From positions 1-64,000 of the IMG/VR virus record IMGVR_UViG_3300017989_000089: a DNA stretch of 64,000 nt. The stretch is one strand, 5' to 3'. The translations under genes and the position numbers were made by a program. Positions 9,936-43,676 of the stretch are shown here, piece after piece. The DNA is from a virus (taxonomy: Duplodnaviria > Heunggongvirae > Uroviricota > Caudoviricetes). Each line of letters starts with the position of its first letter. Position 1 is the first letter of the stretch. The notes under the pieces are model-generated. The model was given only the letters and a program-made list of their open reading frames with translations, searched no databases and was not told where the DNA came from.

Positions 9936-11065
9936 TACTGCAACACCTCGATGACATTAGTGGTGAAGCGCCAGTGGTATGGAGCCTGGAACACAGATTG
10001 CATTGGACGCTCGAGCATCACATACAGGGTCTTTTGTATATCGACCAAAGGCTCGAATGCTATAAAGAATGGTCTACCCACTTGTACGAGACTCGCAAGC
10101 GAATCCCATCGTGGCTTCTCCGCGGTAGGAATGCCGAGCCACTGTAACGGATACGCCATTCGAGTGGCACGTACATGTTGGAAGCTAGCTCCCTCTTCTG
10201 CGATATCGACAGAGGAAAGCTCTTCACGATCTTCAGTGAACGCAGCGGAATAGCCGTTGGATGGTTCGTAGTAATCACCTACATAAGGAACGCCCATCTC
10301 AACGAACCCATCTGGGTTCTGTGTGTTGTCGATTAGCATCCTCCACCAACGGTAGGCGACTGTAGAAGTGAGCCACTCGATCCCCTTAATGTAATCCCGA
10401 CCAGCATCCATTTGCAGCTGTATTGATAGTGGAGGGCTCCCCCACGAATCAATCGTGTTGGCCTGAATTGTGATAACCGTGTTCGCATCGAAGTTGCCAT
10501 CGAATGCTATAACAGCGGAGACAGGATACGAAGCATAACCAGTACCAAAGTCGAACTTGATCCACTCCAACGATCCGTGAGAAACATTGTCGGAGGAGTA
10601 TGATGTTCCGCCTGTGTCATCAGAGCTTGTGTCGAAGCCGATATCTCCACCGATAGTAGTTGCAGCGTTCGGTCCTGTGTTCCAGTCGAGATCGAATGTA
10701 GCAATCCCAGTAGCACGTGCGATCGTGAACAAGTTGGTGACCGGACTGTAAGTAACGGTGTATGTATTGTCGGTGGCGGCTGCATTTAGTTGAGTCTGGA
10801 TCTCAGCAGCCAATGTCACACCGCTCAGATAGTTCATTGCAGTAATAGTTGCTACTGCAGCACCGGATATGCTTTCGGTGAAGTCTAGTTTATCATTAAC
10901 ACCAGCGACGATATTCCACCCTAGCTCTGAGCGCCACCTCTTAGACCGCAGTGGATCATCCAAGAACGTTTTTGGAGCTTGTACCTGCTCAGAGCTTACA
11001 GTCACTACTGTGTTGTCAAGGAGCGCCCAATCCTCGAACAGGATTCTTCCACACGCTGTTCCCAT
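9935..11065 (-). CDS. distal tail protein (Dit-like)
   Basis: 376 aa, immediately downstream of the tape measure gene with overlapping stop and start. Confidence 0.45.
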   Translation of the reverse strand: MGTACGRILFEDWALLDNTVVTVSSEQVQAPKTFLDDPLRSKRWRSELGWNIVAGVNDKLDFTESISGAAVATITAMNYLSGVTLAAEIQTQLNAAATDNTYTVTYSPVTNLFTIARATGIATFDLDWNTGPNAATTIGGDIGFDTSSDDTGGTSYSSDNVSHGSLEWIKFDFGTGYASYPVSAVIAFDGNFDANTVITIQANTIDSWGSPPLSIQLQMDAGRDYIKGIEWLTSTVAYRWWRMLIDNTQNPDGFVEMGVPYVGDYYEPSNGYSAAFTEDREELSSVDIAEEGASFQHVRATRMAYPLQWLGIPTAEKPRWDSLASLVQVGRPFFIAFEPLVDIQKTLYVMLERPMQSVFQAPYHWRFTTNVIEVLQ

Positions 11066-14000
11066 TATCCGAACTCCCCAACTGCATCCGAATGGATACG
11101 GACATCACCTGTACGGCTGAGATCACCAATAACTTTACCGATTGTCTTGCCGTCGATCTGTAGAACCACAATGCTAGGACCACCGGTATCTCCACCACCA
11201 CGTCCGCCACCAGGGGTGATCTCTACGCGTTCCTCACCGGCCTCACCAGCAACGAATGGAGTAGGTACGCTAACGGTTGTAGCTAGGCCGAACTGACCGC
11301 CCTCTGGTGCTCCAGGTCCACCTCCACCTGTTTGATTTGCGGACGATGCAGCAGCCGCGGCATTTCTAGCAGCATCAGCCATCGCAGCGAATTTGTCTGC
11401 GCTTCCTAGAGCACTATCACCAAGGGCACCAACAGCGTCGACCGCAATGCTCATAGACTCGACAATACCAAGGGTTCCATCAGCCACACCTTGGTGTAGT
11501 ACCTGGAACTGCTCGAGGTCTTTGGCAGTGCCTTGTTCGAAGGAAGCCGTTAGTGCGTTCACTGCCTCCTGACCGGCGTTGGACAAAGTCTGCATCTCGT
11601 TCATGCCAGTACCACTGATCTGGCGGAGGTTCTCGGATGCGCCTTGCTCGAACCGTTCAAAGGCTTCACGACCGCGCCCCTCTATAAACTCTAGGTCGCG
11701 TCCGATCTCTTCACCAGCCATTCCGAAGCTCTCTGCAACATGTTGTCCGGCCTGTGCGCCAGCGTTACCAACCAATCCAAGCTCTTCTGCAGTGGCACCT
11801 AGCTTAGTAGCGACGATCTCGAGAACCTCAACCATCCGCTGCATTGGATCAGTCTTGAAACCGATTCCAGCAGCTTCGGCCTGATCAATGAGCTTCTGTG
11901 TGTTCTCATCGAGTTCAAAGCCGAACATCTGAGAAGCGTTCAAAGCTTCCTGTAGGAACGGAGCGATCTGTTGTAGAGCTTCCTCTTGGCTTAGCCCCGC
12001 GGCGGTCAACTGTTCGAAAGCAGCACCGGCTTGTTGTTGAAGGGCACCGAATGTCTCGGTCGTCAGATATCCAGCATTACCCAAACCGGTCATGGCCTCA
12101 GTCAACCCACCAATACCTTCGAGCAGTGGACGGAATTGAGGATCCTTCGCGATGTCGAAGAACCGTTGTACGCCACCGAAGTCAACCTCACCGCCGAATG
12201 CCTCGAGTTTTGCCTTGAGTTCCTGGAATGCAGGTTCGAAGGCATCAACCGCGGCAAGGAGTCCTTCCTCTTGTAGAGTTGCAAAGAAGGCTGCTGCGAA
12301 AATGGTAGCCTGAGCTTGAGCATCCTCAGCCGTCGCTACCTGAATACCACCGAACATCTTCTCACCGCCTTCCCCTTCCATTGCCTGACCGATCATCTTC
12401 GACACGCCTTCAGCTGCTTGTGCGAGTTGATCAGAGATGAAAGCTGCGATTTCTGGAATCTCCTGACCTAGCTCACGAGCACGATTGATGATGTTGAGCA
12501 TCGCGGCATCGGCGAACTTGCCAGCCTCGAATGTTTCTTCAGCCATCATGGAGAATGCATCACCAACGGCTTTGATCCCTTCTTCAGCAGGTACAGTACC
12601 AAGCTCGATCGAATTCAATAGATCGACGACTTGCTTCTCGGCATTTTCCATGCCAAATGCTACGGCACCACCGGCCTCCCGCATGATGTCGCCAAGATGG
12701 AGTAGACGAGACTCGAAACGCCCGAGGTCGAACTTCTCCTGGGTAGCCTCGATGGCTTTCGCGAGTTCCTCGGAGATCTTGACCCCAAAATCACGCTCGA
12801 TATCAGCGGCGATCTTCTCACTTTCGCTCTTCCACAAGTTACGGATTCCGCCGATCGCCGCACCCACAGCTGCTCCGATCCCGGCACCGATAGGACCACC
12901 GATTTGAGCACCCATTGACATACCGGCTGCAGCACCGCCGAAAATAGCTTTAGCTCCACCGCCAGCAGTGGCCTTCCAGATGGTACCGGCACCTTGAACA
13001 ACGTTGCCCATGAATTGCATACCGGCAGCGAGGCCTTCTGAAGAGAACAAGGAACCACCCTCTTTTTGCATGATACCTTGAATGTCTTTGAAGGAGGACT
13101 TCATCTCGGCACCGACTTGCATACCGACAGTCAGGCCACCCATAATCTTTCCAAAGGCGGAGTCAGCATCGATACCAAGGACCTGGAAGGCGGCAGCTAG
13201 ATCTCTAACGGCAGAGCGGAACTTCTTAGCTTGCTTCTCAGCTTCCTTCATCTGTTTCTCGGTCTCGGCGACGATAGCCGCACCGAGTGTACCAGGCATA
13301 TCTTTAGGCGTCTCACCGAACGAAGGCATCTCCGGCGCACCAGTGAATTTGAATCCAGCGGGCGGTTGTAGAGCTTCATCAGAGATATCGCTGAAATCTT
13401 TGAGGCTCTTGGACGCACTTTTGATTGCTTGATCGATTCCCTTAGCCCAATCGATAGAGGCTACAAGATTCTCGTTGAACTTCTTACGAAGATTCTCGAG
13501 AGCCGGATCGACTTCCATACCTGCCCGCTGTGCAAGCTCGAAGAGCTTCTTCGACATTGCATCTAGACCTTGATCCGTGAACTCTTTACCGGCAGCGAAG
13601 GCTTCGATCAGTGCCCGCTGATAATTTTCGAACTCAGTTACTGCGGTGTCGATGGTAAGAGCTTCGATCTCACTACGTAGGGCTTCAGCTGCTTTCTTCG
13701 CTTCCTCATCCGCCTTGATCTTCTCGCGCATTGCATCAACGGCATCCAAGAAGGACTCTCCCTGCTCACTAATGATCTTGGATAGTTCCTCTTCCTTAAT
13801 CCCTAGGAAGGATGCAGCGTCTTTCAAACGTTTGGCTTCCTCTGCAGACGCACGTAGACTCTCGATGATAGACTCGTTCTCCATCCTAAGATTGATCTTG
13901 GCTTCGGCAGCTTGACGTATTCCCTCGGCGGATGCAGCGAACTCTTCAGCTTCCTTGCGTGCGGCCTCGGCGAGTCTATTGGCGACATCGATCCCTTTCT

Positions 14001-16116
14001 CACCGGCTTCTATAGTGATACCAAGTTGCTCAGCCTGGTAACGCATTGCAGCGGTGACGGGGTCTGCATCTGGATCGATTTTCTCCATGGACATAATCCA
14101 ACCTTCGAAGAACTTAGTCATCTTGTCACTAAGTCCATCGAATAGGATTGCGAGTCCATCCAGTGCCGGTCCTATAAGTTTGAATCCTTCTACGAGTACT
14201 CCTATACCACTACCCCAATATAGTATTTGTTTACCGAACTCAATGACGGGACCCAAGACACCACCGACACTCCCACCGAATGATGTGATCCAAGTGATTA
14301 CTGCCGTGAATGTGGAAGCGATAGTGGTTCCCCAACCTTTTGCTACATCGATCCATCCCTTGATTGTCTCTATAATGATCCCGCCAGTATCCTTTGCAGC
14401 ACCGCCAAGAAGCTTGAATACTTCTATGGACCCATACCATGCTTTCTGGAAGATACCTGCATTGTTTATCGCATTCTTAGCTAGATCATCGGATTTGCCT
14501 TGCAACGCTTCCGCACGAGCAGACAGAAAATCTGCAGCGGCAACACCACTCAGGATCCCGGCGGCAATTGCAGCCGCTGCTGTACCAACCGAAGCAGCCA
14601 CAGGACCGACAGCTGATCCAATCGAACTAAAAGCTGGTCCCAGCTTTGTCACCATTGGTACGAGCTTGCTTAGGGCACCGCTGAACTTATTGGCGGCTGT
14701 TGTACCTTTATCGAAAGGCAACATCATTTGTCCACCAGCAACGCTTGTTGCCATGAAGACACCCTTCAGCTTCACGAGTTCACCGGCCAACAAAGCAAAG
14801 ACAGTCTTGGACTGGTTAATCAAACTGATTGTACCAACAAGAGCGCCACCCATGGTCCCAGCGGCGATAGTAAGAGCGACCAAGGCACCGGCCAATCCTA
14901 TCGCACCTAGAATTGCTACTTTGAACGGATCAGGTAGAGATTGGATCCACTTTGCCATGGTAGCTAGAGCACCAGCAAATTTGATCCCGACATCAATCAA
15001 GCCAAGGATTTGGTCCTTGAAGGCATTGAACAAATTGATCCCGATCTCTTCTACGGCTCTCTTCAAACGTCCGAATTGGGCAGATACAGTCGACAACTGA
15101 ACCGCGAACTCACGCTCCAACTTGAGGTGACGTTCACGATCCTTCGTAGCAGCATCCATCGCTTTGCGGAATAGATCGGCAGCACCAGCACCAGCCAACA
15201 TAGTTTGGACAGTACGCAGGTTCTGCAGATCCAACTTCTCGAGGGAGACGAGGAGTTTATCGGACCCTTCATCTTTCAGACGTCCCAGGCCTTCGATAAA
15301 CTGAGCAATCGCCTCACCGGCATCCTTTTGGAAGAGTTGTTGGAACTCATCCATGGACATCTTAGTAACGTTTGCAAACTCCTGAAGCTTTGGCCCACCG
15401 GTAGCGGTAGCCTCGATCATTTGTTGAACTAGCCGCTGTACCGCAGTCGAAGCACGTTCAGTACCAGGGACGACAGCGGAGAACCCACCAGCCAAACCAA
15501 GGAGTTGCTCACCGGAGAGATTGGCAGCTTTAGCCATACCACCGAGTAGCACGGAGAAGTTGAGGATTCGTTCTTCTGTAGTCGGCAGCTTATCGCCTAG
15601 GAAGGCGAGAGTAGACGCAAGCTTGTCGACGTCATCTATACTCTCTCCGGTGAGCGCAACGAGTCGAGCCAGACCTCTGGCAGCGGCTTCAGGAGTAAGT
15701 TCCGCGGCAGCAATGCTCAACTTAGCAATCGTATCTGTGAATTTGGCAAGCTGTTTCGTACCCTCTACACCAAGTTGTCCACCGATTCTCGTCAAGTCAG
15801 CGAGTTCAGCTGCAGCGATACCGGTCGCCTTGGAGGCATCCATCAAGGACGACTCCAACTTGGCGAAGTCCGTTGTGGCGGGGTCAACAGTCTTACGAAC
15901 TCCAGCCATCGCTGATTCGAAATCAGTACCAACTTTCAAAGCGAAGCCGGAGATAGCACCGAAGCTAGCCGCAAATGCTGCCCCCATTCTGTATCCGACG
16001 ACGTTAAGGGTTGCAGAGAATGACTGCACCGTCTTCATCGATTCGGACAAACCGGATCTGAACCCACGGGAGTCCACTCCCATGGACATCATTAGAGGGC
16101 CGATATCTCTTGCCAT
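11065..16116 (-). CDS. tail tape measure protein
   Basis: 1683 aa, Ala/Gly-rich with coiled-coil stretches. Contains a TP901-type TMP motif (..AQFIEGLGRLKDEGSDK..). Position after the tail chaperones. Confidence 0.8.
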   Translation of the reverse strand: MARDIGPLMMSMGVDSRGFRSGLSESMKTVQSFSATLNVVGYRMGAAFAASFGAISGFALKVGTDFESAMAGVRKTVDPATTDFAKLESSLMDASKATGIAAAELADLTRIGGQLGVEGTKQLAKFTDTIAKLSIAAAELTPEAAARGLARLVALTGESIDDVDKLASTLAFLGDKLPTTEERILNFSVLLGGMAKAANLSGEQLLGLAGGFSAVVPGTERASTAVQRLVQQMIEATATGGPKLQEFANVTKMSMDEFQQLFQKDAGEAIAQFIEGLGRLKDEGSDKLLVSLEKLDLQNLRTVQTMLAGAGAADLFRKAMDAATKDRERHLKLEREFAVQLSTVSAQFGRLKRAVEEIGINLFNAFKDQILGLIDVGIKFAGALATMAKWIQSLPDPFKVAILGAIGLAGALVALTIAAGTMGGALVGTISLINQSKTVFALLAGELVKLKGVFMATSVAGGQMMLPFDKGTTAANKFSGALSKLVPMVTKLGPAFSSIGSAVGPVAASVGTAAAAIAAGILSGVAAADFLSARAEALQGKSDDLAKNAINNAGIFQKAWYGSIEVFKLLGGAAKDTGGIIIETIKGWIDVAKGWGTTIASTFTAVITWITSFGGSVGGVLGPVIEFGKQILYWGSGIGVLVEGFKLIGPALDGLAILFDGLSDKMTKFFEGWIMSMEKIDPDADPVTAAMRYQAEQLGITIEAGEKGIDVANRLAEAARKEAEEFAASAEGIRQAAEAKINLRMENESIIESLRASAEEAKRLKDAASFLGIKEEELSKIISEQGESFLDAVDAMREKIKADEEAKKAAEALRSEIEALTIDTAVTEFENYQRALIEAFAAGKEFTDQGLDAMSKKLFELAQRAGMEVDPALENLRKKFNENLVASIDWAKGIDQAIKSASKSLKDFSDISDEALQPPAGFKFTGAPEMPSFGETPKDMPGTLGAAIVAETEKQMKEAEKQAKKFRSAVRDLAAAFQVLGIDADSAFGKIMGGLTVGMQVGAEMKSSFKDIQGIMQKEGGSLFSSEGLAAGMQFMGNVVQGAGTIWKATAGGGAKAIFGGAAAGMSMGAQIGGPIGAGIGAAVGAAIGGIRNLWKSESEKIAADIERDFGVKISEELAKAIEATQEKFDLGRFESRLLHLGDIMREAGGAVAFGMENAEKQVVDLLNSIELGTVPAEEGIKAVGDAFSMMAEETFEAGKFADAAMLNIINRARELGQEIPEIAAFISDQLAQAAEGVSKMIGQAMEGEGGEKMFGGIQVATAEDAQAQATIFAAAFFATLQEEGLLAAVDAFEPAFQELKAKLEAFGGEVDFGGVQRFFDIAKDPQFRPLLEGIGGLTEAMTGLGNAGYLTTETFGALQQQAGAAFEQLTAAGLSQEEALQQIAPFLQEALNASQMFGFELDENTQKLIDQAEAAGIGFKTDPMQRMVEVLEIVATKLGATAEELGLVGNAGAQAGQHVAESFGMAGEEIGRDLEFIEGRGREAFERFEQGASENLRQISGTGMNEMQTLSNAGQEAVNALTASFEQGTAKDLEQFQVLHQGVADGTLGIVESMSIAVDAVGALGDSALGSADKFAAMADAARNAAAAASSANQTGGGGPGAPEGGQFGLATTVSVPTPFVAGEAGEERVEITPGGGRGGGDTGGPSIVVLQIDGKTIGKVIGDLSRTGDVRIHSDAVGEFG

Positions 16117-19898: not shown

Positions 19899-22800
19899 TT
19901 ATGGTGCATCACAGGCACTATCTGTGCGTAGGATGCTGATTACAACCTCGGTTCCGTTTGCTAGCTCCGCAATCAATGCACAGTCGTTGCCGGGGCCACC
20001 GGCACCACGATCTGACACATCGGAGAAATACAACCTGATATCGCTTCCACCAGGACTGGCTATAGCACCGCTTTGGTGCTCTAGATCCAAGTAAGCCCCG
20101 CTTTGGAGAGCGACCGTTCCGGTAGCTGCCGGGATAGTCACCGTATTCACTCCAGATGGAGAAGCAAAATCAAGATAGGTACCAGTCGTTGTGTTTCCCC
20201 ACAAGAACGTGTGATCCCATCCAGTACCCATCACGTGCAAAACCTCGTTTGCAGAGGATGGAGAGATACCGGACCACTGCACACCAAACTTGTTCCCAGC
20301 GGTGTGAGCGGCAGACGGGAAGTTGACCTTAAAGAACTCACGTTGATCTCCGGCGCTGTCCATCGCAGTCTCGTTCGTCTGCTCCATCAGGAAGCTGTAG
20401 CCGGAGTTGCCCGCCGCAACCTCTGATCCCATCTCGAAGTTAGGATCCTGAGTTGTCAACCTTGCCCAACGTATTGGACCGGTTGATGGAGCGAAGACGA
20501 TCGACCCTAGATACGGTGTATAGGTCTCTAGCCTCTGGTTCGGATCTCCGAAGTCACGGAGCTTAATGTATCCATCCGTTGTTGCGTCGTACCCGAAGTG
20601 GAGTTCAACCTCACTTGGAATCTGGATATCACCGGACGCACCGAGTGTAATATCAGCACCATCATCAGTGATCTGTGAGTCCGCCATCTCACTACCGTCC
20701 CACTTCGGTATAGCGTCGGAGGTAAGGCTGGAACCAGAAAGCGGTACACTACTTGCACCTGGATCGAAATAGCTAGACATGACCCACTGTGCTGTTGGGG
20801 TTGTCTGGTAAACGAATCCAATAGTGGACCCGGGCGTAAAGGTGAACGCGGATCCAGGTACCTCTTGTTGTCCTGCGATATCGTTCACAGTGATATCGAC
20901 GGAACCCTGGTTGTGTACGTAGAACCATACACCAGGCATGTCTCCGGCGCTTTCCGCAATCGACAAATCACAAGGTCCGGTAATGCAGGCGACGTTTCTC
21001 CACGAACCGGTTGGGGATTGCATCGGAGTTTCGGTAAGTGTCCCCGCGTTCAATTGATGTGTCGAGATGTTGAATCTGCGCGCACTTGCGAACTGGAAGT
21101 AACCGTTATCGGATGATGCGACAATGTCGTCTCCGGCTCCGTTCGCAGTGAGCAATAGGTTTCCACCGTTCACGGCGAACTGAAGCGTACCTGCTCTAGT
21201 GATGGTTCCAGCCCCGTTATCACTCATAGATCCGTCTACGATATTCGGTGAAGCAAACCTTGGGATGACGTTTGTAGTTCCGGATCCTGCGCTAACCAGC
21301 GCAACCGTCCCTGTTGCGTCTGGAAAGGTAACAGTGTTTGTGCCCGATGGGGACGGCACGTCAATGAAGAACTGGTTTCCCTGACCGGAAGTCGCGTCCG
21401 TATTGACCTCCAGCAGGTGATCGAACGTATTCCTCATCGACAGCAACGATTCCGTCGCATTGGCACTGTTAGCAGAGAGTTGTACACGAAAAGCATTCAA
21501 CCAGTTATTGGCTCCTGTGTGTGCGGCGTTTGTGATACTGGAGGAATACATATTCTTGACATCGTTACCATCCATCACTGCAGGATTGCCTAGGTGAACT
21601 ATGTCATTGGAGCTAGTTCCAGCCGCTCCAAATGTGGCATGCACACGAAACCGCTCCTGGTTGTTCTCTTCCAGTATCTTAAAGATGCCGGTTGGGTAAC
21701 TATCTAGGTAGAACCAATGAACAAGCCCGCCTCCTGTGGTCCCGTACTCGATATCAGTTCCCCAGTCCCAGATGTTGGAGTCCACCAGCTTTGTTCCATC
21801 CCAATAAGGGATCTTGTTTGCTGTCAAGCCGGATTCAAGTACGACTGTACCGCTAGCGTTTGGAAAAAGGATTGTTCTGTCAGCAGTAGGATTGACGACA
21901 TGAACTGTAGTCTCCCACGCATCGCCGACGCTCCCCTCAAATGCTAGACCTGCATCCATGTAACGCCCGAAGTAGATACCCCACTCGTCGGCATTTGCAT
22001 TTGGTGCGGTGAACGAATCGAGATAGAGCCAGGTCCATTCTCCGCCAGTGTGCGCCCCCTGAGCCACTTGCATATTGAATAGCTTTTGCACATCACCTGG
22101 AGCCATCGCGATAGTTGTTATGTTCCCAGCACCCATATAGCTACCGTTGGCAGCTGGTGTGAACAACTGGAACCACCACTCATCGGCGGTTGCATCATCA
22201 TCTATCACGAAATTGAAACTTACATCAGCCCCAAGTCTCATACCGTATGGGGCATCAGCATGGATGTGGCGGATCTCTCCGATATCGTTGGAGGTCTGAT
22301 GAAAGTTTATACCGTAGACAACCTCGGAGGAATCGTCCGCATCACCAAAGTTCATGTTGATGTAGTTGGTCTTTCCACTAGACAATGCCGTAATGTCCGG
22401 ATTGAAATTGAAGAGGTTGATTGTATTCCCCGCACCAGGGTCATTAAGCGTTGGTGCGATGGAAAGTACATCCCCTCCTGATGCCGCTGCTGGCACTGCC
22501 GCCTCTGCAATCTCGGAGTCAACTAGCTCGCCGGTTGTGCTTCCCTGGTACACATGTCTAGTTGCTGTCGACGTCACAACTCCAAACGTCCCAGACACGT
22601 CAGGTACAGCGATAGTCCGATTGGCGGTAGGAGTATTGAATCCAATATCAGTCGTGAACGTCGCAGTCTCGTAGCGAATCTCATTGTCCCAACCAGTCCC
22701 GAAGTTGATCGCGTTGTGGGTCGCGTTGGCTCCTGGTGTGATGTTCGAGAACTTGAAGCCATTCGCAACGTTGCCCGTTCCTGTATTTGCTGTAAACGTA

Positions 22801-24017
22801 GGCGAAAGTCTGAAAAAGTCCACAAGTGTTCGTGTGGTCCCGTTCATATCGCGGGCGTAGGCGTCGTACATAAACCAGCCAGTATCTGGAATCCCTGGTG
22901 CAGGTACATTGCTTCTATACCTGACATTGTAATCACCAGAATTCAATCCTGCCGCACCAACCGTCCATTCTTGGTAGGAGCCGTTGTTAATCAACGTGTC
23001 AATCACATCGAGGCGGTGCCGTCTATGAACCGTTCCAGTCCCGGAATCGAAATAGACTTCGTAGATCCCTCCGCCTCCTGGCCAACTAGAAAACAATAGC
23101 TTGTAGTCGTTAGGGAACCGTACACCATTTACACCATCATCGGTGATCATAGAGTCACCGATTGTAGTTGCTCCTGTGAACTTGGTCATGTAGTTTGTGG
23201 TTCCACCAGCAGAGAGCATAATCGTACCAGTGGCCGCAGGGATCGTTACAGTATTGTTCCCAGACGGAGCAGCAAAATCCAGGTACGTATTGTTCGCTCC
23301 AGCTGCATCACCCTTGTTCCAATCGTGATCCCATCCGCTACCAAGCTGTGTGTGGATCTCAGTTGCGGCAGATGGAGTGATAGATCCCCAAAACGCACCA
23401 TATTTGATTCCTGCAGTATGTGCTCCGGAAGCGGGTTCAATGTTAAGGTGGTACCGTCGATCATCTGCACTGTCCATCGCACTTTCAGTACCCTGACCGA
23501 TAATATTGAACTGAGGGCCAGACGTACCGGCTAGCACAAGAGCATTCATATTGATGTATGGCTTGTTGGCTCCACCATAATCGTAGATGACACTCCAAGG
23601 ACCACCAACGAACATCGCAATACCGGCGTTGTTGTTTTGTGCATCGATCTCGAAACGATCTGCAGCACCACCGAACGTGCGGTGGATAAGCGTAGTAATG
23701 TTGGCACCGGTACCAAAATCAACCTGATAGTCATAAGGAATGATCAGATTGGTGAGCGTGTCTTGAAGCGCGCTCGAGTCCTGAGTATGAGCACCACTCC
23801 AACGAACAAGATACGGAGACACACCAGTACCGGTCACATTATCAGCAGGGATAGGCCCACCACCACCACCACAGACGAAGTTGTCGTAGGCGTCAAAGCA
23901 GTTCTCGAGTGCCATAATCGCCTTAGACGACAGACCTCCGCCTTGTCTGCTACTCTGTGCAGATGCCATCCCGGCGATAGCCAAGAACACGACAAAGAAT
24001 AGGAATGTGCGTTTCAT
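19899..24017 (-). CDS. giant Sec-signal-peptide protein with internal ~150-250-aa repeats
   Basis: 1372 aa. N-terminus MKRTFLFFVVFLAIAGMASA-QSS is a typical signal peptide. At least four repeat units share ..AHTAG.K(Y/F)G..W...(P/S)..A.E...G.GWDH......YLDFA.PSG.NTVT(I/F)P(A/D)ATGT(I/V)AL.S. Confidence 0.6.
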   Translation of the reverse strand: MKRTFLFFVVFLAIAGMASAQSSRQGGGLSSKAIMALENCFDAYDNFVCGGGGGPIPADNVTGTGVSPYLVRWSGAHTQDSSALQDTLTNLIIPYDYQVDFGTGANITTLIHRTFGGAADRFEIDAQNNNAGIAMFVGGPWSVIYDYGGANKPYINMNALVLAGTSGPQFNIIGQGTESAMDSADDRRYHLNIEPASGAHTAGIKYGAFWGSITPSAATEIHTQLGSGWDHDWNKGDAAGANNTYLDFAAPSGNNTVTIPAATGTIMLSAGGTTNYMTKFTGATTIGDSMITDDGVNGVRFPNDYKLLFSSWPGGGGIYEVYFDSGTGTVHRRHRLDVIDTLINNGSYQEWTVGAAGLNSGDYNVRYRSNVPAPGIPDTGWFMYDAYARDMNGTTRTLVDFFRLSPTFTANTGTGNVANGFKFSNITPGANATHNAINFGTGWDNEIRYETATFTTDIGFNTPTANRTIAVPDVSGTFGVVTSTATRHVYQGSTTGELVDSEIAEAAVPAAASGGDVLSIAPTLNDPGAGNTINLFNFNPDITALSSGKTNYINMNFGDADDSSEVVYGINFHQTSNDIGEIRHIHADAPYGMRLGADVSFNFVIDDDATADEWWFQLFTPAANGSYMGAGNITTIAMAPGDVQKLFNMQVAQGAHTGGEWTWLYLDSFTAPNANADEWGIYFGRYMDAGLAFEGSVGDAWETTVHVVNPTADRTILFPNASGTVVLESGLTANKIPYWDGTKLVDSNIWDWGTDIEYGTTGGGLVHWFYLDSYPTGIFKILEENNQERFRVHATFGAAGTSSNDIVHLGNPAVMDGNDVKNMYSSSITNAAHTGANNWLNAFRVQLSANSANATESLLSMRNTFDHLLEVNTDATSGQGNQFFIDVPSPSGTNTVTFPDATGTVALVSAGSGTTNVIPRFASPNIVDGSMSDNGAGTITRAGTLQFAVNGGNLLLTANGAGDDIVASSDNGYFQFASARRFNISTHQLNAGTLTETPMQSPTGSWRNVACITGPCDLSIAESAGDMPGVWFYVHNQGSVDITVNDIAGQQEVPGSAFTFTPGSTIGFVYQTTPTAQWVMSSYFDPGASSVPLSGSSLTSDAIPKWDGSEMADSQITDDGADITLGASGDIQIPSEVELHFGYDATTDGYIKLRDFGDPNQRLETYTPYLGSIVFAPSTGPIRWARLTTQDPNFEMGSEVAAGNSGYSFLMEQTNETAMDSAGDQREFFKVNFPSAAHTAGNKFGVQWSGISPSSANEVLHVMGTGWDHTFLWGNTTTGTYLDFASPSGVNTVTIPAATGTVALQSGAYLDLEHQSGAIASPGGSDIRLYFSDVSDRGAGGPGNDCALIAELANGTEVVISILRTDSACDAP

Positions 24018-35952: not shown

Positions 35953-37467
35953 CTATTTCTCTGGCGTTGTGGCACGCTTCGTCTCTCTTCCTCTCCGACG
36001 CTTGCGGAGTTCAAGGAGATGAGGATCCGTCTCCTTCACTCTAGCTTCCTTTTTACGAACTTCGGAAGACGTCCTCAATACAGTAGTAGGTACGGGAAGG
36101 TTGAAGCTATCGATCATTTCCCTCCCGTTCTTACCGGCATAGATTAGAAGGTGTCCCGGCTTGAGAATATCCAGGGCATCAAGCAGATTACGCTCAATAA
36201 TTGGCACCCTCTCCTGATCAAACTCCGTTTGGAACTGTGTTGCAACGATAGGAGGATTGAAAGGAATACCCATCAAGCAATATTGTTGTGACTTTTCCTG
36301 GAAGAACTCAAGTCTCGGGATCACCTTCAGCCCAGCCTCTTGGAAGTAACGCCCAAGCCAGGCAGAGCGATAAAGTGACCAGATATGTGCGGCGGTCGGA
36401 GCGAAATCCCACAAGGAGAAATCAGGGACGACGATCGTCTTCACACCAGCGACTAGAATCTGACCGACACGATACGCTGGAGTCGCCCACCAGGTCTCGA
36501 TGTGGGCGTCATGCGTGAAGAAAGAAAAGATCGTACGATCGAACGGCAATCCACGGTGTGGGCATGCACCATAGTTGTAGTAGTAGAAGCTCTTTCCATC
36601 GTCTGGAGTGGATAGGCGATCGCCCCAGATCTTGATATCGTCTGGAAGTGTCTCGGCGAGCATGTCAGGACGGAGGTTAGGAATCCCGATCGAATTGGCA
36701 CCGGGGAACGTGATCCATCCACCACCTTGTTTCTTGTTGACTCCAGCAATGCACTGATCTGCGAAGTCATCATCCTCTGGAAGCCAGTACTCCTCTTCAG
36801 AAAGTTTGAAGACACCTTCAAGCTCAAAAGGGAGTTGATCATAGATCTGCTGATCGTCGAGCTTCTTTTCGTGGGGTTCTTTCTCCTCTTCCTGCTCTTC
36901 TTGTGAGTCGGTGGGTTCCCGTTCGTTTTGTTCCGATGGCTGTTGTTCACCGATTTCGTTGATCTCTGGCACTTCGAACTCTTCTTCGTCGTGATGCTCA
37001 ATTTCACGCTCCACTTCGTTTGCTATTTCCGCAATGTCGGCCTCGAGTACAGCTTCAGCGGCGATAATATCATGATCGAACTCCTCAACCATGCGCTGAA
37101 GCTCAGCCTCGTCGAACCCTCCCTCGACTGTCAATAGATTGGCTGTAGCTCCGTACTCCTCTGCATCTTCCTCGGACTCGAAGGTCACGCCGCGGATGAC
37201 CGGAATACACCATGCACCATTCTGATCCAGTTTTATACGCTTTGGGGGCGGCTTACCGGAGTCGCGCTCTTCCTCAAGTTTCTCGAGCCTTCCATGACCG
37301 GCTACGAGCTTACCAGAGCCCTCATCTATCAATACAGGATCCACGAAGCCGAATCTGGCGAAGGAGTCCTTGATTTTCTCGGAATGGAGTTTGGGATTGC
37401 GCTCCATCTTGATTAGATCTTGTAGACGGTGGTACTCTATCCACATGTCTTTTTCTTCTGACATCAT
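35953..37467 (-). CDS. ParB-like nuclease domain protein with DUF4417-like C-terminal domain
   Basis: N-terminus (ERNPKLHSEKIKDSFARFGFVDPVLID...GHGR) is ParB/Srx-like, followed by an acidic linker and a large C-terminal domain. Start chosen at ATGATG (37462-37467), which sits behind GGAGGT. Confidence 0.45.
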   Translation of the reverse strand: MMSEEKDMWIEYHRLQDLIKMERNPKLHSEKIKDSFARFGFVDPVLIDEGSGKLVAGHGRLEKLEEERDSGKPPPKRIKLDQNGAWCIPVIRGVTFESEEDAEEYGATANLLTVEGGFDEAELQRMVEEFDHDIIAAEAVLEADIAEIANEVEREIEHHDEEEFEVPEINEIGEQQPSEQNEREPTDSQEEQEEEKEPHEKKLDDQQIYDQLPFELEGVFKLSEEEYWLPEDDDFADQCIAGVNKKQGGGWITFPGANSIGIPNLRPDMLAETLPDDIKIWGDRLSTPDDGKSFYYYNYGACPHRGLPFDRTIFSFFTHDAHIETWWATPAYRVGQILVAGVKTIVVPDFSLWDFAPTAAHIWSLYRSAWLGRYFQEAGLKVIPRLEFFQEKSQQYCLMGIPFNPPIVATQFQTEFDQERVPIIERNLLDALDILKPGHLLIYAGKNGREMIDSFNLPVPTTVLRTSSEVRKKEARVKETDPHLLELRKRRRGRETKRATTPEK

Positions 37468-37481
37468 TACCTCCAGGCCGC

Positions 37482-37511
37482 AATATACCATGTCTCATTC
37501 TCCCTCTACAA
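37482..37511 (-). promoter_or_regulatory. candidate sigma70-like promoter for the leftward structural operon
   Basis: On the minus strand, TTGTAG, 18 nt, TATATT lies just upstream of the ParB-like gene RBS. Confidence 0.3.
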
Positions 37512-37577: not shown

Positions 37578-38444
37578 ATGGATAAGAAAATTCCTGACAA
37601 TCCTGGCATCACCCACGTTCTCTACCACGGAAATTGCTACGATGGGTTTACTGCGGCATGGATCGCACGTAACGCTGGTGTGCCAGAAGAAAACATCCGC
37701 CCTGTGAACTATGGAGGGGAGTGTCCACCATTACCGGATCCACCAGGGTCCAAAGTTTTGATGACTGACTTCTCCCTGCCCAGAGAGGGTCTCCAGATGA
37801 TGGAGAAGGCGGTGGAAACTCTGATCGTTCTCGATCATCACAAGACTGCTGAAGCTCAGCTGCATGGACTGCCTTGGGCATACTTCGACATGAACGAATC
37901 GGGTGCGAGCTTGACATGGGACTTCTTCCATCCAGGCGAGCCACGACCGAAATTTGTCAAGTACATCCGTGAACACGATCTATGGAGGTTTGAACTGGCA
38001 CAGTCTGCACAGGTGAGAGCGTTCATTCGATCCTACCCTATGTCCTATGAAAACTGGGATTACCTCAATACGACGATTGAAATGGATTTTGAGATCGTGG
38101 AGCGTGAAGGTGCAGCAATCCAGCGTGGACATGAGGCGTTGATCAGCGAGATGTGCAAACAGGCTGTTATCATGAAAATCGGTGGGCATGAAGTACCGGT
38201 TGTCAATGCGACAATCCTGTTTTCCGAAGTAGCAACACGCCTTCTGAAGCTGTATCCAAATGCTTCATTCGCCGCATACTACATGGATCGCGCTGACGGC
38301 GTTCGTCAATGGGGAATGAGATCACGGAGTGATTTCGACTGCTCAAAGGTCGCGAAACGTTACGGTGGTGGGGGCCACCCTGGAGCATCCGGCTTCGTCA
38401 CAGAAGTCCCAACAATAATCGAAGAAGAGAAAGAAAAGGCTTGA
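37578..38444 (+). CDS. DHH/DHHA1-family phosphoesterase (NrnA-like)
   Basis: 288 aa. Motifs are HGNCYDGFTAAW (DxD), VLDHHKT (DHH) and a C-terminal GGGHPGASGF (DHHA1 GGGH). Confidence 0.65.
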   Translation: MDKKIPDNPGITHVLYHGNCYDGFTAAWIARNAGVPEENIRPVNYGGECPPLPDPPGSKVLMTDFSLPREGLQMMEKAVETLIVLDHHKTAEAQLHGLPWAYFDMNESGASLTWDFFHPGEPRPKFVKYIREHDLWRFELAQSAQVRAFIRSYPMSYENWDYLNTTIEMDFEIVEREGAAIQRGHEALISEMCKQAVIMKIGGHEVPVVNATILFSEVATRLLKLYPNASFAAYYMDRADGVRQWGMRSRSDFDCSKVAKRYGGGGHPGASGFVTEVPTIIEEEKEKA

Positions 38445-38478
38445 CAGCTTAGCTACTGGATCCTACAATTATTCACGT

Positions 38479-38666: not shown

Positions 38667-38742
38667 TGGGCACGGAGGTCTGGTCGATCCACTGACTCTT
38701 ATAAGGCCGGTGCGCTGGGTTCGATTCCCAGGTGCCCAACCA
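38667..38742 (+). tRNA. tRNA-like / possible pseudo-tRNA (canonical 3' half, aberrant D/anticodon region)
   Basis: Acceptor tgggcac/gtgccca, T-arm ctggg-ttcgatt-cccag and CCA are clean. The intervening 41 nt do not fold into D and anticodon arms. An 8-bp stem agagtcag/ctgactct overlaps the region. Confidence 0.35.
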
Positions 38743-38862: not shown

Positions 38863-38892
38863 AGGCCGGGTCCTACGGGGTCCGGCCTTTTT
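38863..38892 (+). terminator. rho-independent terminator
   Basis: GC stem aGGCCGG...CCGGCCt followed by TTTTT. Confidence 0.5.
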
Positions 38893-39900: not shown

Positions 39901-39975
39901 GGGCTGGTAGCTTAATGGGAGAGCGGGTGCTTTGCAAGCATTCAGATGTCGGTTCGACCCCGACCTGGTCCACCA
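39901..39975 (+). tRNA. tRNA-Ala (TGC)
   Basis: G3:U70 pair in the acceptor stem. Anticodon loop ttTGCaa. T-arm gtcgg-ttcgacc-ccgac. CCA. Confidence 0.65.
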
Positions 39976-40342
39976 AACAGACATACCCAGTGGGACATCT
40001 CACGGGGAGGCTTCATACGATACGAATGAGATCGTCACTGTTGCAGTTAGAGCCCAAAGATGTTGTCGGCTCCCCCCGTGCCACTGGGGTGTTCTTGGAA
40101 AGTAGGATGCAGACTTTCGATGAAAGGGGCAAGATGCAAGTTTTCGACAAAAAGGAAGGCAAGTTGATCTCATTGTCTCCCGGCGAGTACGCAGACTTGC
40201 TACAGAGGAAGCACAACGAAGTGAATCAAGGAGGCGGCGTGGAAGCTTGGATGGATTTGATGGGGCTCTTGATTACAGGATTCCCTGCCATCATACAAGC
40301 TCTCAGGCTGACGGACGCCATGACGGAAGTTGATACCAATTA

Positions 40343-40418
40343 GCCCCTGTAGCTTAATTGGAAGAGCGGACGCCTTGTAAGCGACCAGATGCGGGTTCGA
40401 GTCCTGCCGGGGGCTCCA
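40343..40418 (+). tRNA. tRNA-Thr (TGT)
   Basis: Acceptor gcccctg/cgggggc. D-stem gctt/gagc. Anticodon loop ctTGTaa. T-arm gcggg-ttcgagt-cctgc. CCA. Confidence 0.7.
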
Positions 40419-40765
40419 ATGATACGGCATATTAATCGTAGTCATTTGAAACGGAGATGGGGGCGCAAATGGACTAAAAGAGCATGTCCTTGTTGTGGTG
40501 CTGGAGATGATTACAACAGGGAGCGCCAACGAAGGAATCTCAAGGAACGTCTGATCAAGGCAGAGATCAAAGATGGATTGGCCAAAGTGTCCTAAGTGTG
40601 GCACGCCTGGATCTTCAAAAGGATTCCAGGGAGAACTAATTTGGATTCCTACTTGCCAATGTGGCAAAGGACTGTTTCCTGAGAAGCCGATGGTTCGCAT
40701 TTGGGAAACACCTGAGGAGGAAGAAGTGAAGAAGCTCAAACGTAGGAGACGGGAAGAGTAACACC

Positions 40766-40919: not shown

Positions 40920-41071
40920 AAGATGGTGGACATAACACCAAATGATCCAGGTTGGATCACACTGATCGAGGACGACGAGCCGATTACCGGCGAATCGCTA
41001 TGCAAGGAATGTGGGAGGCCTATTAAGGATCACTACAACGAACGATCCTGCCCTGAACTGAAAGGGGGAAT

Positions 41072-41566
41072 ATGATCTATCTAGTTTCCTACATAGAGGA
41101 AGTGAAGATCGGTTGGCGTGCGTACGATCGCTGGATGTTCGATATATTGGATACAGGATTCGGCATCGACATTCACTATTACATCCCAATCGATCTACAA
41201 AAAGACGGAGACTGGTTCTGGAGCAAAGGAAGAGGAGGGGAGGACAAAAGGTTCGTTGCAGATCTCCCAATGCTGAAGAGAGTGCTCGGTGATATCAACT
41301 ATGTAAATGTCCAACCTGCAAAAGTGCTGAGGTCACTTGGTAAGGTGGGACAGAACCTAACGAACTTCATCCATCCCGATGAAGACGTTTGTTACATCTT
41401 CGGACCAAATAAAGGGAAGATAGAACTACTGCCGGGTTATAATGTCTACATCACGCTCGAGAAGAGTGCGCTGCATGCTTCATCCGCTGCAGCAATCGTG
41501 CTTTATGACCGAAGAGCAAAGATCGAAACTGGTACTCGTGGTTGGCCCACCGAGAAGCGGGACTAG
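41072..41566 (+). CDS. SPOUT-class RNA 2'-O-methyltransferase (TrmL/TrmH-like)
   Basis: 164 aa. The C-terminal half (YIFGPNKGKIELLPGYNVYITLEKSALHASSAAAIVLYD) matches TrmL motifs (FGPE..G; IPM..SLN.S.A.A..LYE). Confidence 0.45.
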   Translation: MIYLVSYIEEVKIGWRAYDRWMFDILDTGFGIDIHYYIPIDLQKDGDWFWSKGRGGEDKRFVADLPMLKRVLGDINYVNVQPAKVLRSLGKVGQNLTNFIHPDEDVCYIFGPNKGKIELLPGYNVYITLEKSALHASSAAAIVLYDRRAKIETGTRGWPTEKRD

Positions 41567-42107
41567 CGTCACTGCTAGGATCCTTCATGAGAAGATCGGC
41601 ATTTGTTTTGGACATAATCTAGTACCAGGCAATGCTGGCAACCCGAAAGGGTTCTACGAAGATTCACAGATGGTGGCAGCGACCTTGACCAAGAACACGG
41701 CGATCTGGAGAACGATGCTCGAGTATGTTCACAGCAAATGTAACAAACCGAGAGGAGTGAAAACACCTGAGCTAGCTTTCATGGAGATCAGAGAACTACA
41801 ACCGGATCTCATTTTTAGAACATGTAGGTCTCCTATAGCGATCGCAGACAGCTTGGAGCGTTGGTATCAACCGAAACCATCGTGTGCAGATGCACTGTCG
41901 ATGGCAGTAAAATACGAAAAGGCTATCGAGGAAAAACTAACCGGAATCAGTTGTCATGTCCATCGTGTTGACTTCTACCGACAGCGCGACGAGGGAGAGT
42001 TGGAGGAAGAGTTGAGAAAGGCATGTACCTCCGTAATTCAGCGGATAGAAGGCCGGACTCTTAATCCGGAGGTCGTAGGTTCGAATCCTACCGGGGGTAC
42101 CAAATGA
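41505..42107 (+). CDS. PAPS-dependent sulfotransferase-family protein
   Basis: LVLVVGPPRSGTS matches the 5'-PSB P-loop (PKSGTT) and RSPIAIADSLERWY matches the 3'-PB motif (R.P.D...S.Y..W). The ORF begins at 41442; internal ATG 41505 was chosen. It overlaps the SPOUT gene, and its 3' end runs into tRNA-Lys(CTT). Confidence 0.5.
   Translation: MTEEQRSKLVLVVGPPRSGTSVTARILHEKIGICFGHNLVPGNAGNPKGFYEDSQMVAATLTKNTAIWRTMLEYVHSKCNKPRGVKTPELAFMEIRELQPDLIFRTCRSPIAIADSLERWYQPKPSCADALSMAVKYEKAIEEKLTGISCHVHRVDFYRQRDEGELEEELRKACTSVIQRIEGRTLNPEVVGSNPTGGTK
42027..42101 (+). tRNA. tRNA-Lys (CTT)
   Basis: Anticodon stem ccgga/tccgg, loop ctCTTaa. T-arm gtagg-ttcgaat-cctac. Acceptor 3' cgggggt, then A and CCA. 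Confidence 0.7.
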
Positions 42108-42173
42108 TCTACTGCCACATTTGCAAGAAGAACTACAAGGAATGCACGTGTGGTCTCTCAGAAAGGATGAAGG

Positions 42174-42419
42174 ATGCCCGAGAAAGGCAACGTAGAGAAA
42201 AAGAGGACACCAAAGGGGGATATGATAGACGGTCCGGCCCACTACAAGGGGTACGACGTTCTGGAGTTCATAAATCGACATGACCTCGGTTTCGAGCTTG
42301 GTAACGCAGTCAAGTACATTGCTCGAGCACAAGCCAAGGGTAAAGAGATCGAGGACTTGAAAAAAGCGGTATTCTATTTGAATTGGTACATCGAAAGAAA
42401 GGAGAGTGGAGCGGAGTAG
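42174..42419 (+). CDS. hypothetical protein
   Basis: 81-aa ORF between two tRNAs. Confidence 0.35.
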   Translation: MPEKGNVEKKRTPKGDMIDGPAHYKGYDVLEFINRHDLGFELGNAVKYIARAQAKGKEIEDLKKAVFYLNWYIERKESGAE

Positions 42420-42495: not shown

Positions 42496-43482
42496 ATGAG
42501 CGACGAGAGAGTACACAGCTACAGCAGCCCGTACGCAGTTGGGCACAAGATGCTCGCCCGTTACGAAGATCGCCCAGGCATCTTCGAGGTGGAGGTCTTT
42601 GTCGAAGAGAAGATCGATGGAAGCCAGTTCTCCTTTCGTAAAGAAGGAGACGAGGTGAAGTTCCGCTCTCGCAAGACAGATCTCTACCCCGGCAATGCGG
42701 GGATGTTCGAGAAGGGAGTACAATCTGTACTCGAGGTTGCCGATCGCCTCTCCGAAGGTTGGACGTATCGTGGTGAGTATCTCATGAAGCCAAAACACAA
42801 TACACTATGCTACGAGCGTGTACCGAATAGAAACGTCGTGATCTTCGATATCGAGAAGGCACCGAATGACTTCCTGACTCCAGACCAGCGAATGGAGGAA
42901 GCAACACGGCTCGGGTTCGATGTCGTTCCTGTGTACTTCACCGGAATGATCGACGACATGAACCAGCTGAAGCAGTTCCTGACCAAGGTTTCCATACTTG
43001 GTGGACCGATCGAGGGGATCGTAATCAAGCCAAAGAGTCAGATGCTATTCGGTATCGACAAGAAGCTTCTCATGGCTAAGTTCGTTGCCGAAGACTTCAA
43101 GGAGAAGCATGAAGGTGAGTGGAAGAAGTCCAATCCAGGACGGAAGGACATCGTTCAGGAGATCATCGAGACTTACAAAACGCCTCAGAGATGGAACAAA
43201 GCCGTACAGCACCTTCGTGAGGCTGGTAAGCTCGAGGGATCTCCACGGGACATTGGACTTCTCATGAAGGAAGTCCCAAGCGACGTCTACAAGGAATGCG
43301 CCGAAGAGATCAAGGAACAGATCTTCAAGTACTTTTGGAGACAGATCTCTAGAGCATTGACGAGTGGACTACCCGAGTGGTACAAGGAAAAACTTGCGAA
43401 GGACGCGTTCGAGAATCCGGAAGGTTGTCAGCCTCATGAGAGTGTCCAAGCCGAGAACGGGGAAGGAGCAAAGCCAGAATGA
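42496..43482 (+). CDS. ATP-dependent nucleic-acid ligase (Rnl2-like RNA ligase / small DNA ligase)
   Basis: 328 aa. Nucleotidyltransferase motif I is EEKIDGSQ (KxDG), motif IV is EGIVIKP, motif V is LLMAKFVAEDFKEK. Size and context suggest RNA ligase. Confidence 0.65.
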   Translation: MSDERVHSYSSPYAVGHKMLARYEDRPGIFEVEVFVEEKIDGSQFSFRKEGDEVKFRSRKTDLYPGNAGMFEKGVQSVLEVADRLSEGWTYRGEYLMKPKHNTLCYERVPNRNVVIFDIEKAPNDFLTPDQRMEEATRLGFDVVPVYFTGMIDDMNQLKQFLTKVSILGGPIEGIVIKPKSQMLFGIDKKLLMAKFVAEDFKEKHEGEWKKSNPGRKDIVQEIIETYKTPQRWNKAVQHLREAGKLEGSPRDIGLLMKEVPSDVYKECAEEIKEQIFKYFWRQISRALTSGLPEWYKEKLAKDAFENPEGCQPHESVQAENGEGAKPE

Positions 43483-43676
43483 GAGAGCGTTGTCCACGGT
43501 GTGGTATCCCATTTCTGAAGCACGAAGTAATAGTTGGTGAGGAGATGCCTCTTGGAGACGGTACGAAGTGCTATGGGCGTAAAGGGGTAATCTACTACCA
43601 CAAAACAGGCATCCACTGTGGGATCAAAGATGATGGGACAATGTACGAGATAGACTGCAGAGCAAAGCCCGATTAG
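43479..43676 (+). CDS. zinc-ribbon mini-protein
   Basis: 65 aa with CPRCG...C..C-like cysteine pairs. Overlaps the ligase stop. Confidence 0.3.
   Translation: MRERCPRCGIPFLKHEVIVGEEMPLGDGTKCYGRKGVIYYHKTGIHCGIKDDGTMYEIDCRAKPD

Follow-up and report, generated by a model that had tools for sequence, protein, structure and literature searches.

We analysed a 64,000-nucleotide stretch of viral DNA (positions 1 to 64,000 of IMGVR_UViG_3300017989_000089; hereafter the window, to which all coordinates refer) and focused on two overlapping open reading frames (ORFs), ORF1 and ORF2, the second of which runs into a tRNA-Lys(CTT) gene. An earlier note, made from the sequence alone, had described them as a SPOUT methyltransferase gene and a sulfotransferase gene. 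Both prove to be genuine accessory genes, separate from each other. Our overall explanation, which we hold with moderate confidence, is that they encode a minimal SPOUT protein and a minimal sulfotransferase of the 3′-phosphoadenosine-5′-phosphosulfate (PAPS) type, respectively, and that the overlaps result from tight packing.

The region lies at the start of an island of 27 tRNA genes (38479–63456), all on the plus strand and covering most amino acids; the island follows a minus-strand block, and near 38 kb the sign of the GC skew is reversed. The open frame of ORF2 begins at 41442, and translation from the ATG at 41505 gives a 200-aa product that ends with the stop codon at 42107, whose TGA overlaps the ATG of the next small ORF. 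A public gene call (P0001; ENA, 83-kb contig) is identical, with the same ATG and 200 aa. The out-of-frame overlap of 62 nt between the two ORFs described in the earlier note is present with this start, and the motifs quoted there translate at the three places listed in Table 1. The same note had the genes abutting tRNA-Lys(CTT); the ORF2 frame does run through this tRNA gene, which is thus overlapped (81 nt) rather than abutted.

Table 1 Features of the ORF1/ORF2 region and its surroundings
Feature	Position	Strand	Description	Basis
ORF1	41072–41566	+	164 aa; predicted divergent SpoU/TrmL-class SPOUT-like protein	ORF list, family of 15, profile links
ORF1 motif 2/3 region	41387–41512	+	residues 106–147, VCYIFGPNKGK...SALHASSAAAIVLYDR	translation; aligns to TrmL motifs 2 and 3 and to SpoU relatives
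ORF2 conserved core	41505–42026	+	174 aa; predicted compact sulfotransferase-like P-loop-fold protein	
ORF1/ORF2 overlap	41505–41566	+	62 nt, out-of-frame; holds the first 23 nt of the P-loop coding sequence	
5′-phosphosulfate-binding-type loop	41544–41567	+	GPPRSGTS, ORF2 residues 14–21, without the Walker-A lysine	translation
3′-phosphate-binding-type motif	41826–41852	+	RSPIAIADS, ORF2 R108...S116, R-x7-S	translation
tRNA-Lys(CTT), encoded CCA	42027–42102	+	wholly within the ORF2 frame	ARAGORN; Rfam 67.1 bits
ORF2 tail and stop TGA (42105–42107)	42027–42107	+	27 codons, the first 25 being tRNA sequence	
Zinc-ribbon ORF	40923–41075	+	50 aa; directly upstream of ORF1, whose start is coupled to its stop by an ATGA junction	weak zinc-ribbon Pfam matches
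CxxC ORF	42104–42283	+	59 aa; begins 2 nt past the 3′ end of tRNA-Lys(CTT); kept after the tRNA in relatives	
DHH/DHHA1 phosphoesterase	37578–38444	+		phrog_4771 E 6.7e-69; Pfam DHHA1 24.3 bits (below cutoff), E 4.5e-5
RNA ligase	42496–43482	+		PF09414 E 3.8e-15; phrog_548 E 1.8e-31

Sulfotransferase-type motifs of ORF2

A search of 5.8 billion proteins returned 16 non-self homologs of ORF2 with 44–69% identity. All of them are metagenomic, nearly all are 167–185 aa long, and they match the window protein over their whole length, as far as about residue 174. Two distant homologs, one on a viral contig from IMG/VR (locus L090) and the other the N-terminal domain of a 414-aa protein from a record named Pseudomonas phage Y4 (hereafter the Y4 homolog), are included in the set of 18 sequences that we compared. 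Sixteen residues are invariant in this set (G14, R17, S18, T20, S21, G36, N46, P47, G49, E52, G84, K86, P88, R108, S116 and Y137), and H37 is nearly invariant, being Glu in the Y4 homolog. The two PAPS-binding motifs that the earlier note had recognised are thus invariant across the family.

The closest known proteins are the tyrosylprotein sulfotransferases (human TPST1 and TPST2, PDB 5WRI and 3AP1) and the Pfam Sulfotransfer_3 family, together with the sulfotransferase domains of CurM/OLS and mycobacterial Stf0/Stf1. The TPST2 query sequence was 100% identical to PDB 3AP1, with R78, E99, K158, R183 and S191 at their literature positions. In ORF2, the GPPRSGTS loop comes after the strand at residues 9–13 and aligns to GVPRSGTT of TPST2, in keeping with the PRSGT[ST] loop that follows strand 1 in TPST and Sulfotransfer_3 proteins. 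R108-x7-S116 comes after a later strand (residues 102–107) and opens the helix at 110–120, as the 3′-phosphate-binding motif does, and reads RNPADIA[VI]S in three members. Between the two motifs, G-[VI]-K86-x-P parallels the N-K158-D-P of TPST2, so that the order PRSGTS, K-x-P, R-x7-S is that of R78, K158 and R183/S191 in the human enzyme. TPST and Sulfotransfer_3 proteins may also share with ORF2 a His or acidic residue close to the position of Glu99, where ORF2 would have His and TPST has Glu. Sulfotransfer_3 (PF13469) was the top Pfam family for 16 of the 17 ORF2 members scanned (best E 7.7e-6, 26.8 bits), and two members aligned to Sulfotransfer_1 or Sulfotransfer_4 over ~120 residues spanning both motifs. 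On these motif and profile matches, ORF2 is probably a compact sulfotransferase-like protein that binds PAPS.

Relation of ORF1 to the SPOUT superfamily

ORF1 itself matched nothing in direct scans of Pfam, PHROG and NCBIfam, and a PDB sequence search with the single sequence and with a profile was also empty. The first homolog search found one relative. After the inclusion of fetched loci and a profile search, the family comprised 15 sequences of 131–171 aa (14 besides the window), none of which had a direct Pfam match. They share the signature Y7, H35, YVNVQ, F-x-H101-P, C107-Y-x-F-G-P-N113, L134 and L-Y-D-R147, together with a 25-aa insertion that is variable. An exhaustive HMMER search of 1.84 billion representative proteins with the ORF1 profile (A6) yielded 277 proteins at E<=1e-3, and 19 of the 82 remote matches scanned had a SpoU_methylase match in Pfam. 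Three of the profile matches, P0102, P0104 and P0142 (E 2.5e-6, 2.9e-6 and 1.3e-5), score well over the threshold of PF00588 (7e-22, 1.5e-18 and 2.8e-15) and also match the NCBIfam models of RlmB, TrmJ, TrmL and TrmH.

When the ORF1 family was aligned by hhalign with these three proteins plus TrmL, the match reached 98.1% (E 7e-14) over ORF1 residues 27–155, a value that is partly circular because the templates had been found with the ORF1 profile. The non-circular alignment with TrmL only places the same motifs in register at P 0.017: CYIFGPN...I..(6)..SALHASSAAAIVLYD of ORF1 aligns with LMFGPE...IPM..SRSMNLSNAVSVVVYE of TrmL, and G111 is invariant. Residues 106–147 are presumed to form the SAM (S-adenosylmethionine)-binding knot on the basis of this alignment. 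The length of ORF1 (~130–165 aa in a single domain, as in TrmL), the alignment of the motif 2/3 region and the profile links to PF00588 members support, with caveats, the view that ORF1 is a whole, divergent and minimal SPOUT domain of the SpoU/TrmL type. The SPOUT assignment of the earlier note is thus placed in the SpoU/TrmH-TrmL family, and its description of the protein as a C-terminal half of the domain is to be dropped, as the alignment covers residues 27–155.

The caveats concern mainly the active site. Besides the circularity of the better alignment, the ORF1 clade lacks the motif-1 N-x-G-x-x-x-R. In the joint alignment (A8), its Arg column is occupied by D, N, Q or G, and P0102, P0104, P0142 and TrmL keep N.G..[LI]R. 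Motif 2 has Asn for Glu (FGPE to FGPN), and motif 3 has His or Tyr for Asn (SLN to SLH or SLY). In TrmH, the altered positions carry the catalytic Arg (Arg41, in motif 1) and residues that handle S-adenosylmethionine. In addition, the AlphaFold2 model of ORF1, built from a two-sequence alignment, had a predicted local distance difference test score (pLDDT) of 36 and provides no evidence for the fold. These points count against our explanation of ORF1, and with the canonical catalytic residues lost, methyltransferase activity cannot be assumed.

These substitutions, together with the failure of all 15 members to match Pfam directly and the neutral to acidic isoelectric point (pI) of ORF1, are what would be expected of a SPOUT-fold pseudo-enzyme that binds RNA or protein without methylating it, and that leaves the function of ORF2 independent. 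We regard this as a serious possibility, although not the favoured one. New invariant polar residues (Y7, H35, N79, Q81, H101, C107, N113 and R147) suggest a maintained site, and the motif 2/3 glycine and the hydrophobic SAM-binding pattern are retained. Other SPOUT classes, moreover, use different catalytic residues. ORF1 may be a methyltransferase whose active site has been rebuilt, or else a binding protein without catalytic activity; in either case it is set apart from TrmL (YibK) and other SpoU-TrmH proteins by its own signature (YVNVQ, F-x-HP, C-Y-x-FGPN and LYDR) and by its insertion.

Fold of ORF2 and comparison with kinases

The AlphaFold model of ORF2 (pLDDT 88; predicted template modelling score 0.82) has a five-stranded α/β fold of the P-loop type, in which the tail encoded by the tRNA gene (~26 codons) is disordered (pLDDT 48–55). 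Foldseek placed adenylate kinases on top (E ~4e-5, TM ~0.5), and a fold search of the BFVD viral library again gave a mixture of kinases and sulfotransferases. The modelled fold alone does not decide, as it fits sulfotransferases and nucleoside monophosphate (NMP) kinases alike.

The main rival for ORF2 is accordingly a degenerate, NMP-kinase-like P-loop protein that has lost the Walker lysine and binds nucleotides in a regulatory role or another role unrelated to phosphotransfer. The Foldseek ranking, the length of ~175 aa and the N-terminal peptide, which resembles GPPGSGK[ST] and is weakly like adenylate-kinase P-loops, agree with such a protein, as do AAA_18 matches in 11 members. We consider it unlikely nonetheless. 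P-loop NMP kinases such as adenylate kinase and hCINAP/Fap7 carry the Walker-A lysine, whereas its position is Thr20 in 18 of 18 ORF2 sequences, and Arg17 occupies the Lys/Arg position that contacts the 5′-phosphosulfate in sulfotransferases. The invariant K-x-P and R-x7-S (RNPADIAVS in some members) follow in sulfotransferase order, the AAA_18 matches always score below Sulfotransfer_3, and the invariance of polar residues speaks for an active site maintained by selection. In hhalign, the ORF2 family matched TPST2 across the loop and helix with P 1.4e-4, compared with 4.3e-3 for E. coli adenylate kinase, a ~30-fold difference in P-value in favour of TPST2. Where the fold search does not decide, the motifs therefore point to a sulfotransferase rather than a kinase. 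Since the Walker lysine is missing, we also rejected the idea that ORF2 works with the RNA ligase as its polynucleotide kinase.

Several results weigh against the sulfotransferase assignment itself. Every match to a sulfotransferase family is sub-threshold (for Sulfotransfer_3 the cutoff is 27 bits, and the window ORF2 scores 16), so that the family guessed in the earlier note is the best-scoring one and yet always falls below its gathering score. No NCBIfam match was obtained for the three ORF2 members scanned, and a PHROG scan gave no sulfotransferase, its sole match being a weak one to an ATPase (E 0.013, in a single member). No sulfotransferase turned up in PDB sequence searches, whether the query was ORF2 itself, either of two profiles, the N-terminal peptide or the Y4 homolog; the matches were noise or non-significant adenylate-kinase P-loops. 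The conserved core stops at about residue 174, after the strand and helix that follow the 3′-phosphate-binding helix, with no further domain. It thereby stops short of the C-terminal third found in known catalytic domains (~175 aa compared with ~250–300 aa), of the Ser285 region of TPST2 and of the C-terminal nucleotide-binding loop (GxxGxxK) of cytosolic enzymes, and it also lacks the dimer and acceptor-binding elements of TPST2. PAPS binding is only putative because these C-terminal nucleotide-binding elements are absent. Even so, profile searches assigned neither ORF2 to a non-sulfotransferase P-loop family nor ORF1 to a non-SPOUT fold, the outcome that the earlier note had named as incompatible with its proposal.

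On the sulfotransferase reading, ORF2 would be a stripped-down PAPS-type fold of ~175 aa that binds host PAPS. The hhalign alignment to TPST2 ends at G36/G97, which leaves H37 opposite Glu98 and would put it one residue from the position of the catalytic Glu99. H37 could then deprotonate the acceptor hydroxyl for an in-line attack on the sulfuryl group, with R17 and K86 stabilising the transition state, and 3′-phosphoadenosine-5′-phosphate (pAp) would be released. Because the acceptor-enclosing and C-terminal elements of larger sulfotransferases are absent, the site should be open. A macromolecular acceptor would fit best, a glycan or a protein tyrosine being likelier than RNA.

Genomic setting, acceptor and packing of the two genes

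ORF1 and ORF2 sit in a conserved module of large uncultured phages. On related contigs of up to 315 kb, the shared order is a DUF4417/ParB nuclease gene (minus strand), the DHH gene, a run of tRNA genes, tRNA-Lys(TTT), tRNA-Arg(TCT), (ORF1), (a small ORF), ORF2, tRNA-Lys(CTT), (DUF7574), DUF3310, tRNA-Gln and the RNA ligase gene. In the window, the nuclease-like gene encodes a 512-aa ParB-N plus DUF4417 protein (35953–37491, minus strand) whose transcription diverges from that of the tRNA island, and it has the same place in loci L004 and L005. tRNA-Lys(CTT) lies directly 3′ of ORF2 in every syntenic locus that has that side (L001–L008, L094, L095 and L101–L103). ORF1 adjoins ORF2 in the window, L001–L003, L007, L008, L092 and L103, is one gene away in L005, L095, L101 and L102, and is absent within the fetched flanks from five of 13 independent ORF2 loci (L004, L006, L093, L090 and L097). 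Searches of phage and viral collections by blastn gave tRNA matches only; in the phage collection, tblastn found no ORF1 homolog and no full-length ORF2 homolog, only the partial, N-terminal match in Y4.

From this placement, the earlier note had suggested the modification of RNA or of a nucleotide-linked substrate. Spelled out, ORF1 would methylate such a substrate (a tRNA, an RNA after repair or something nucleotide-linked) and ORF2 would sulfate it, the products would be linked to tRNA-Lys(CTT) and the RNA ligase, and the DHH protein would remove the pAp. The constant position of ORF2 before tRNA-Lys(CTT), the closeness of ORF1 (adjacent or one gene off in eight loci), the presence of the ligase and DHH genes in the same island, and the fact that the SpoU relatives of ORF1 are RNA 2′-O-methyltransferases all speak for such a pair. 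However, the syntenic loci are one inherited block, and the tRNA adjacency therefore counts as a single evolutionary observation. Outside this block, the homolog at L090 (42% identity; a single locus from IMG/VR, on a high-GC viral contig of 47.7 kb) lies between ParB-like, replication-like and ParB-DNA-methylase genes, and no tRNA was found within 4 kb upstream or within 1.8 kb downstream, where the contig ends. A ParB-like gene thus also flanks the ORF2 homolog in this unrelated setting. Further points against an RNA substrate are the Y4 homolog, the nearest one outside the phage family, which adjoins a glycosyltransferase gene; the absence of ORF1 from five of the 13 loci; and the loss of its canonical catalytic residues. 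Neither family is consistently basic (pI ~5 to 9), and net charge did not separate RNA-binding from other roles. To our knowledge, no RNA sulfotransferase has been described. We thus regard the proposed RNA-directed pair as improbable, and the more specific idea, that ORF2 is a minimal sulfotransferase acting alongside ORF1 on a nucleic acid or nucleotide-linked acceptor (a ribose hydroxyl, for instance, or a modified base in tRNA-Lys or another tRNA of the phage or its host), as very improbable indeed. If it were true, ORF2 would be the first RNA sulfotransferase and might shield tRNAs against anticodon nucleases of the host. In literature searches, we came across neither a description of a phage sulfotransferase encoded in a tRNA island nor a phage anti-nuclease system of the SPOUT type.

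The functional link between ORF2 and the DHH gene suggested in the earlier note fared no better. Homologs of the DHH gene occur in 128 records of the phage collection that lacks a full-length ORF2 homolog. It resembles NrnA-type pAp phosphatases/oligoribonucleases in its DHH/DHHA1-like domains, whereas its match to the NrnA model NF053633 is marginal (E 0.021, 13.8 bits, with a cutoff of 350). Recycling of pAp by its product is possible but unsupported. The closest homologs in cultured phages (33–36% identity), from Caulobacter phiCbK-like giant phages and Brevundimonas jumbo phages, hint at the kind of phage behind the window.

The nearest ORF2 homolog in the phage sequence collection gives a clue to the acceptor. 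It is the N-terminal domain of the 414-aa protein (L098:2471–3715) from 'Pseudomonas phage Y4' (OQ572406, an UNVERIFIED record), which matched the ORF2 family in hhalign with 97.9% (E 5e-13). Four motifs are held in common (GMHRSGTS, NPKGYWED, GIKDP and RHPLSVAES), whereas ~70 extra residues within the domain, a coiled-coil C-terminal extension of ~200 aa and the Glu at the position of His37 distinguish it from ORF2. The gene directly follows a GT4 glycosyltransferase gene, with no tRNAs beside it, and this neighbour favours a glycan acceptor, which the earlier note had offered as its alternative. The pair itself, a GT4 glycosyltransferase gene followed by the gene of a sulfotransferase-like coiled-coil protein, stands without annotation in the record (L098; OQ572406.1 22432–27581) and looks like a bacterial glycan-modification cassette.

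The overlap between ORF1 and ORF2 varies among relatives: it is 62 nt in the window, 56 nt in L001, 26 nt in L103 and replaced by a 3-nt gap in L007. The 62-nt overlap arises because the ORF1 tail extends past the usual end of the family, and the frame conserved within it is that of ORF2: KLVLVVGPPRSGTS. A programmed frameshift fusion of the two was rejected, as ORF2 is in the +1 frame relative to ORF1 and the genes of L007 are separate. The 3′ end of ORF2 is variable as well. In the eight loci compared, the stop codon lies 5 nt before the tRNA gene in L004 and L005, 8–38 nt inside it in L006, L007, L001, L094 and L095, and beyond it in the window (81 nt from the tRNA start), as it also does in P0017. 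The tail that translates the tRNA is shared only with P0017, all other homologs stopping earlier, and is not conserved as protein. The tRNA-Lys(CTT) of the window starts with A1, which pairs with U72, whereas the seven relatives examined start with G1 or, in L001, T1; with A1, the stop codons at which ORF2 terminates within the tRNA of relatives are lost. Such read-through is unremarkable because a tRNA of 25 codons is expected to lack an in-frame stop in ~30% of cases, (61/64)^25. Given that the stops range from 5 nt before to 81 nt into the tRNA, a functional need to translate through it was rejected. Both the overlap and the read-through look incidental, as by-products of tight packing and drifting stop codons rather than functional design.

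The idea that one or both ORFs are spurious frames arising from tRNA-rich sequence, to which the tRNA-derived tail of ORF2 and the several island ORFs that enter or leave tRNA genes might lend colour, is effectively refuted, since both are conserved as proteins at 33–70% identity across many contigs with invariant motifs, the ORF2 structure model is confident, and the 16 homologs of ORF2 and the 14 further family members and 277 profile matches of ORF1 are more than chance would give.

Between ORF1 and the tRNA, we found no promoter-like site and no convincing terminator-like site, the only terminator-pattern match there (41365–41384, inside ORF1) being without a T-run. A strong, near-consensus sigma-70-type promoter (TTGACA-17-TACAAT) is located at 38441–38469, 10 nt before the first tRNA-Met gene. 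With this promoter upstream and no separating site, co-transcription of ORF1 and ORF2 with the tRNAs is likely. In most lineages, the RNase P cut at the 5′ end of tRNA-Lys(CTT) would then leave an ORF2 message without a stop codon. Wherever the ORF2 stop lies inside or beyond the tRNA, such a non-stop message would couple protein yield to tRNA maturation, which would be the weaker novelty of the locus; we treat it as a curiosity and not as evidence of design.

Several features of the island were noted in passing. The gene for tRNA-Ile with anticodon TAT (38667–38742) would allow AUA to be read without the lysidine pathway, and it is followed by a strong terminator-like hairpin of 11 pairs with a T-run (38863–38888). 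Four small CxxC zinc-ribbon ORFs lie among the tRNA genes (40573–40761, 40923–41075, 42104–42283 and 43479–43676). As the third begins 2 nt after the CCA of tRNA-Lys(CTT), its ribosome-binding site could be the run of G in the acceptor stem; its counterparts in L001, L005, L094 and L095 start 0–8 nt after the same tRNA. This ORF overlaps the DUF3310 gene out of frame both in the window (42104–42283 and 42174–42419) and in the distant L005 (6605–6862 and 6669–7034), and the pair may represent either overlapping genes or a single product joined by frameshifting. Two more ORFs start inside tRNA genes, 39915–40343 in tRNA-Ala and 40389–40595 in tRNA-Thr; overlaps of ORFs with tRNAs are therefore common in the island and partly artefacts of choosing the longest ORF. 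Elsewhere in the window, two very long minus-strand ORFs (11065–16116, 1683 aa; 19899–24017, 1372 aa) presumably encode structural or tail proteins.

As it stands, the analysis contributes one divergent member to each of two known superfamilies and describes a compact arrangement of genes and a tRNA. So far, the ORF1 clade (277 profile relatives) has been seen exclusively on phage-like and metagenomic contigs; it forms an uncharacterised SPOUT branch and could represent either a pseudo-enzyme or an RNA-modifying activity of a new kind. Should ORF2 be active, it would be the smallest sulfotransferase scaffold known so far, at ~175 aa, and large phages would be using PAPS from the pool of the host for the sulfation of a macromolecule. 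Such a protein would be of use to enzyme engineers and would help to explain the remodelling of host surfaces or proteins by phages.

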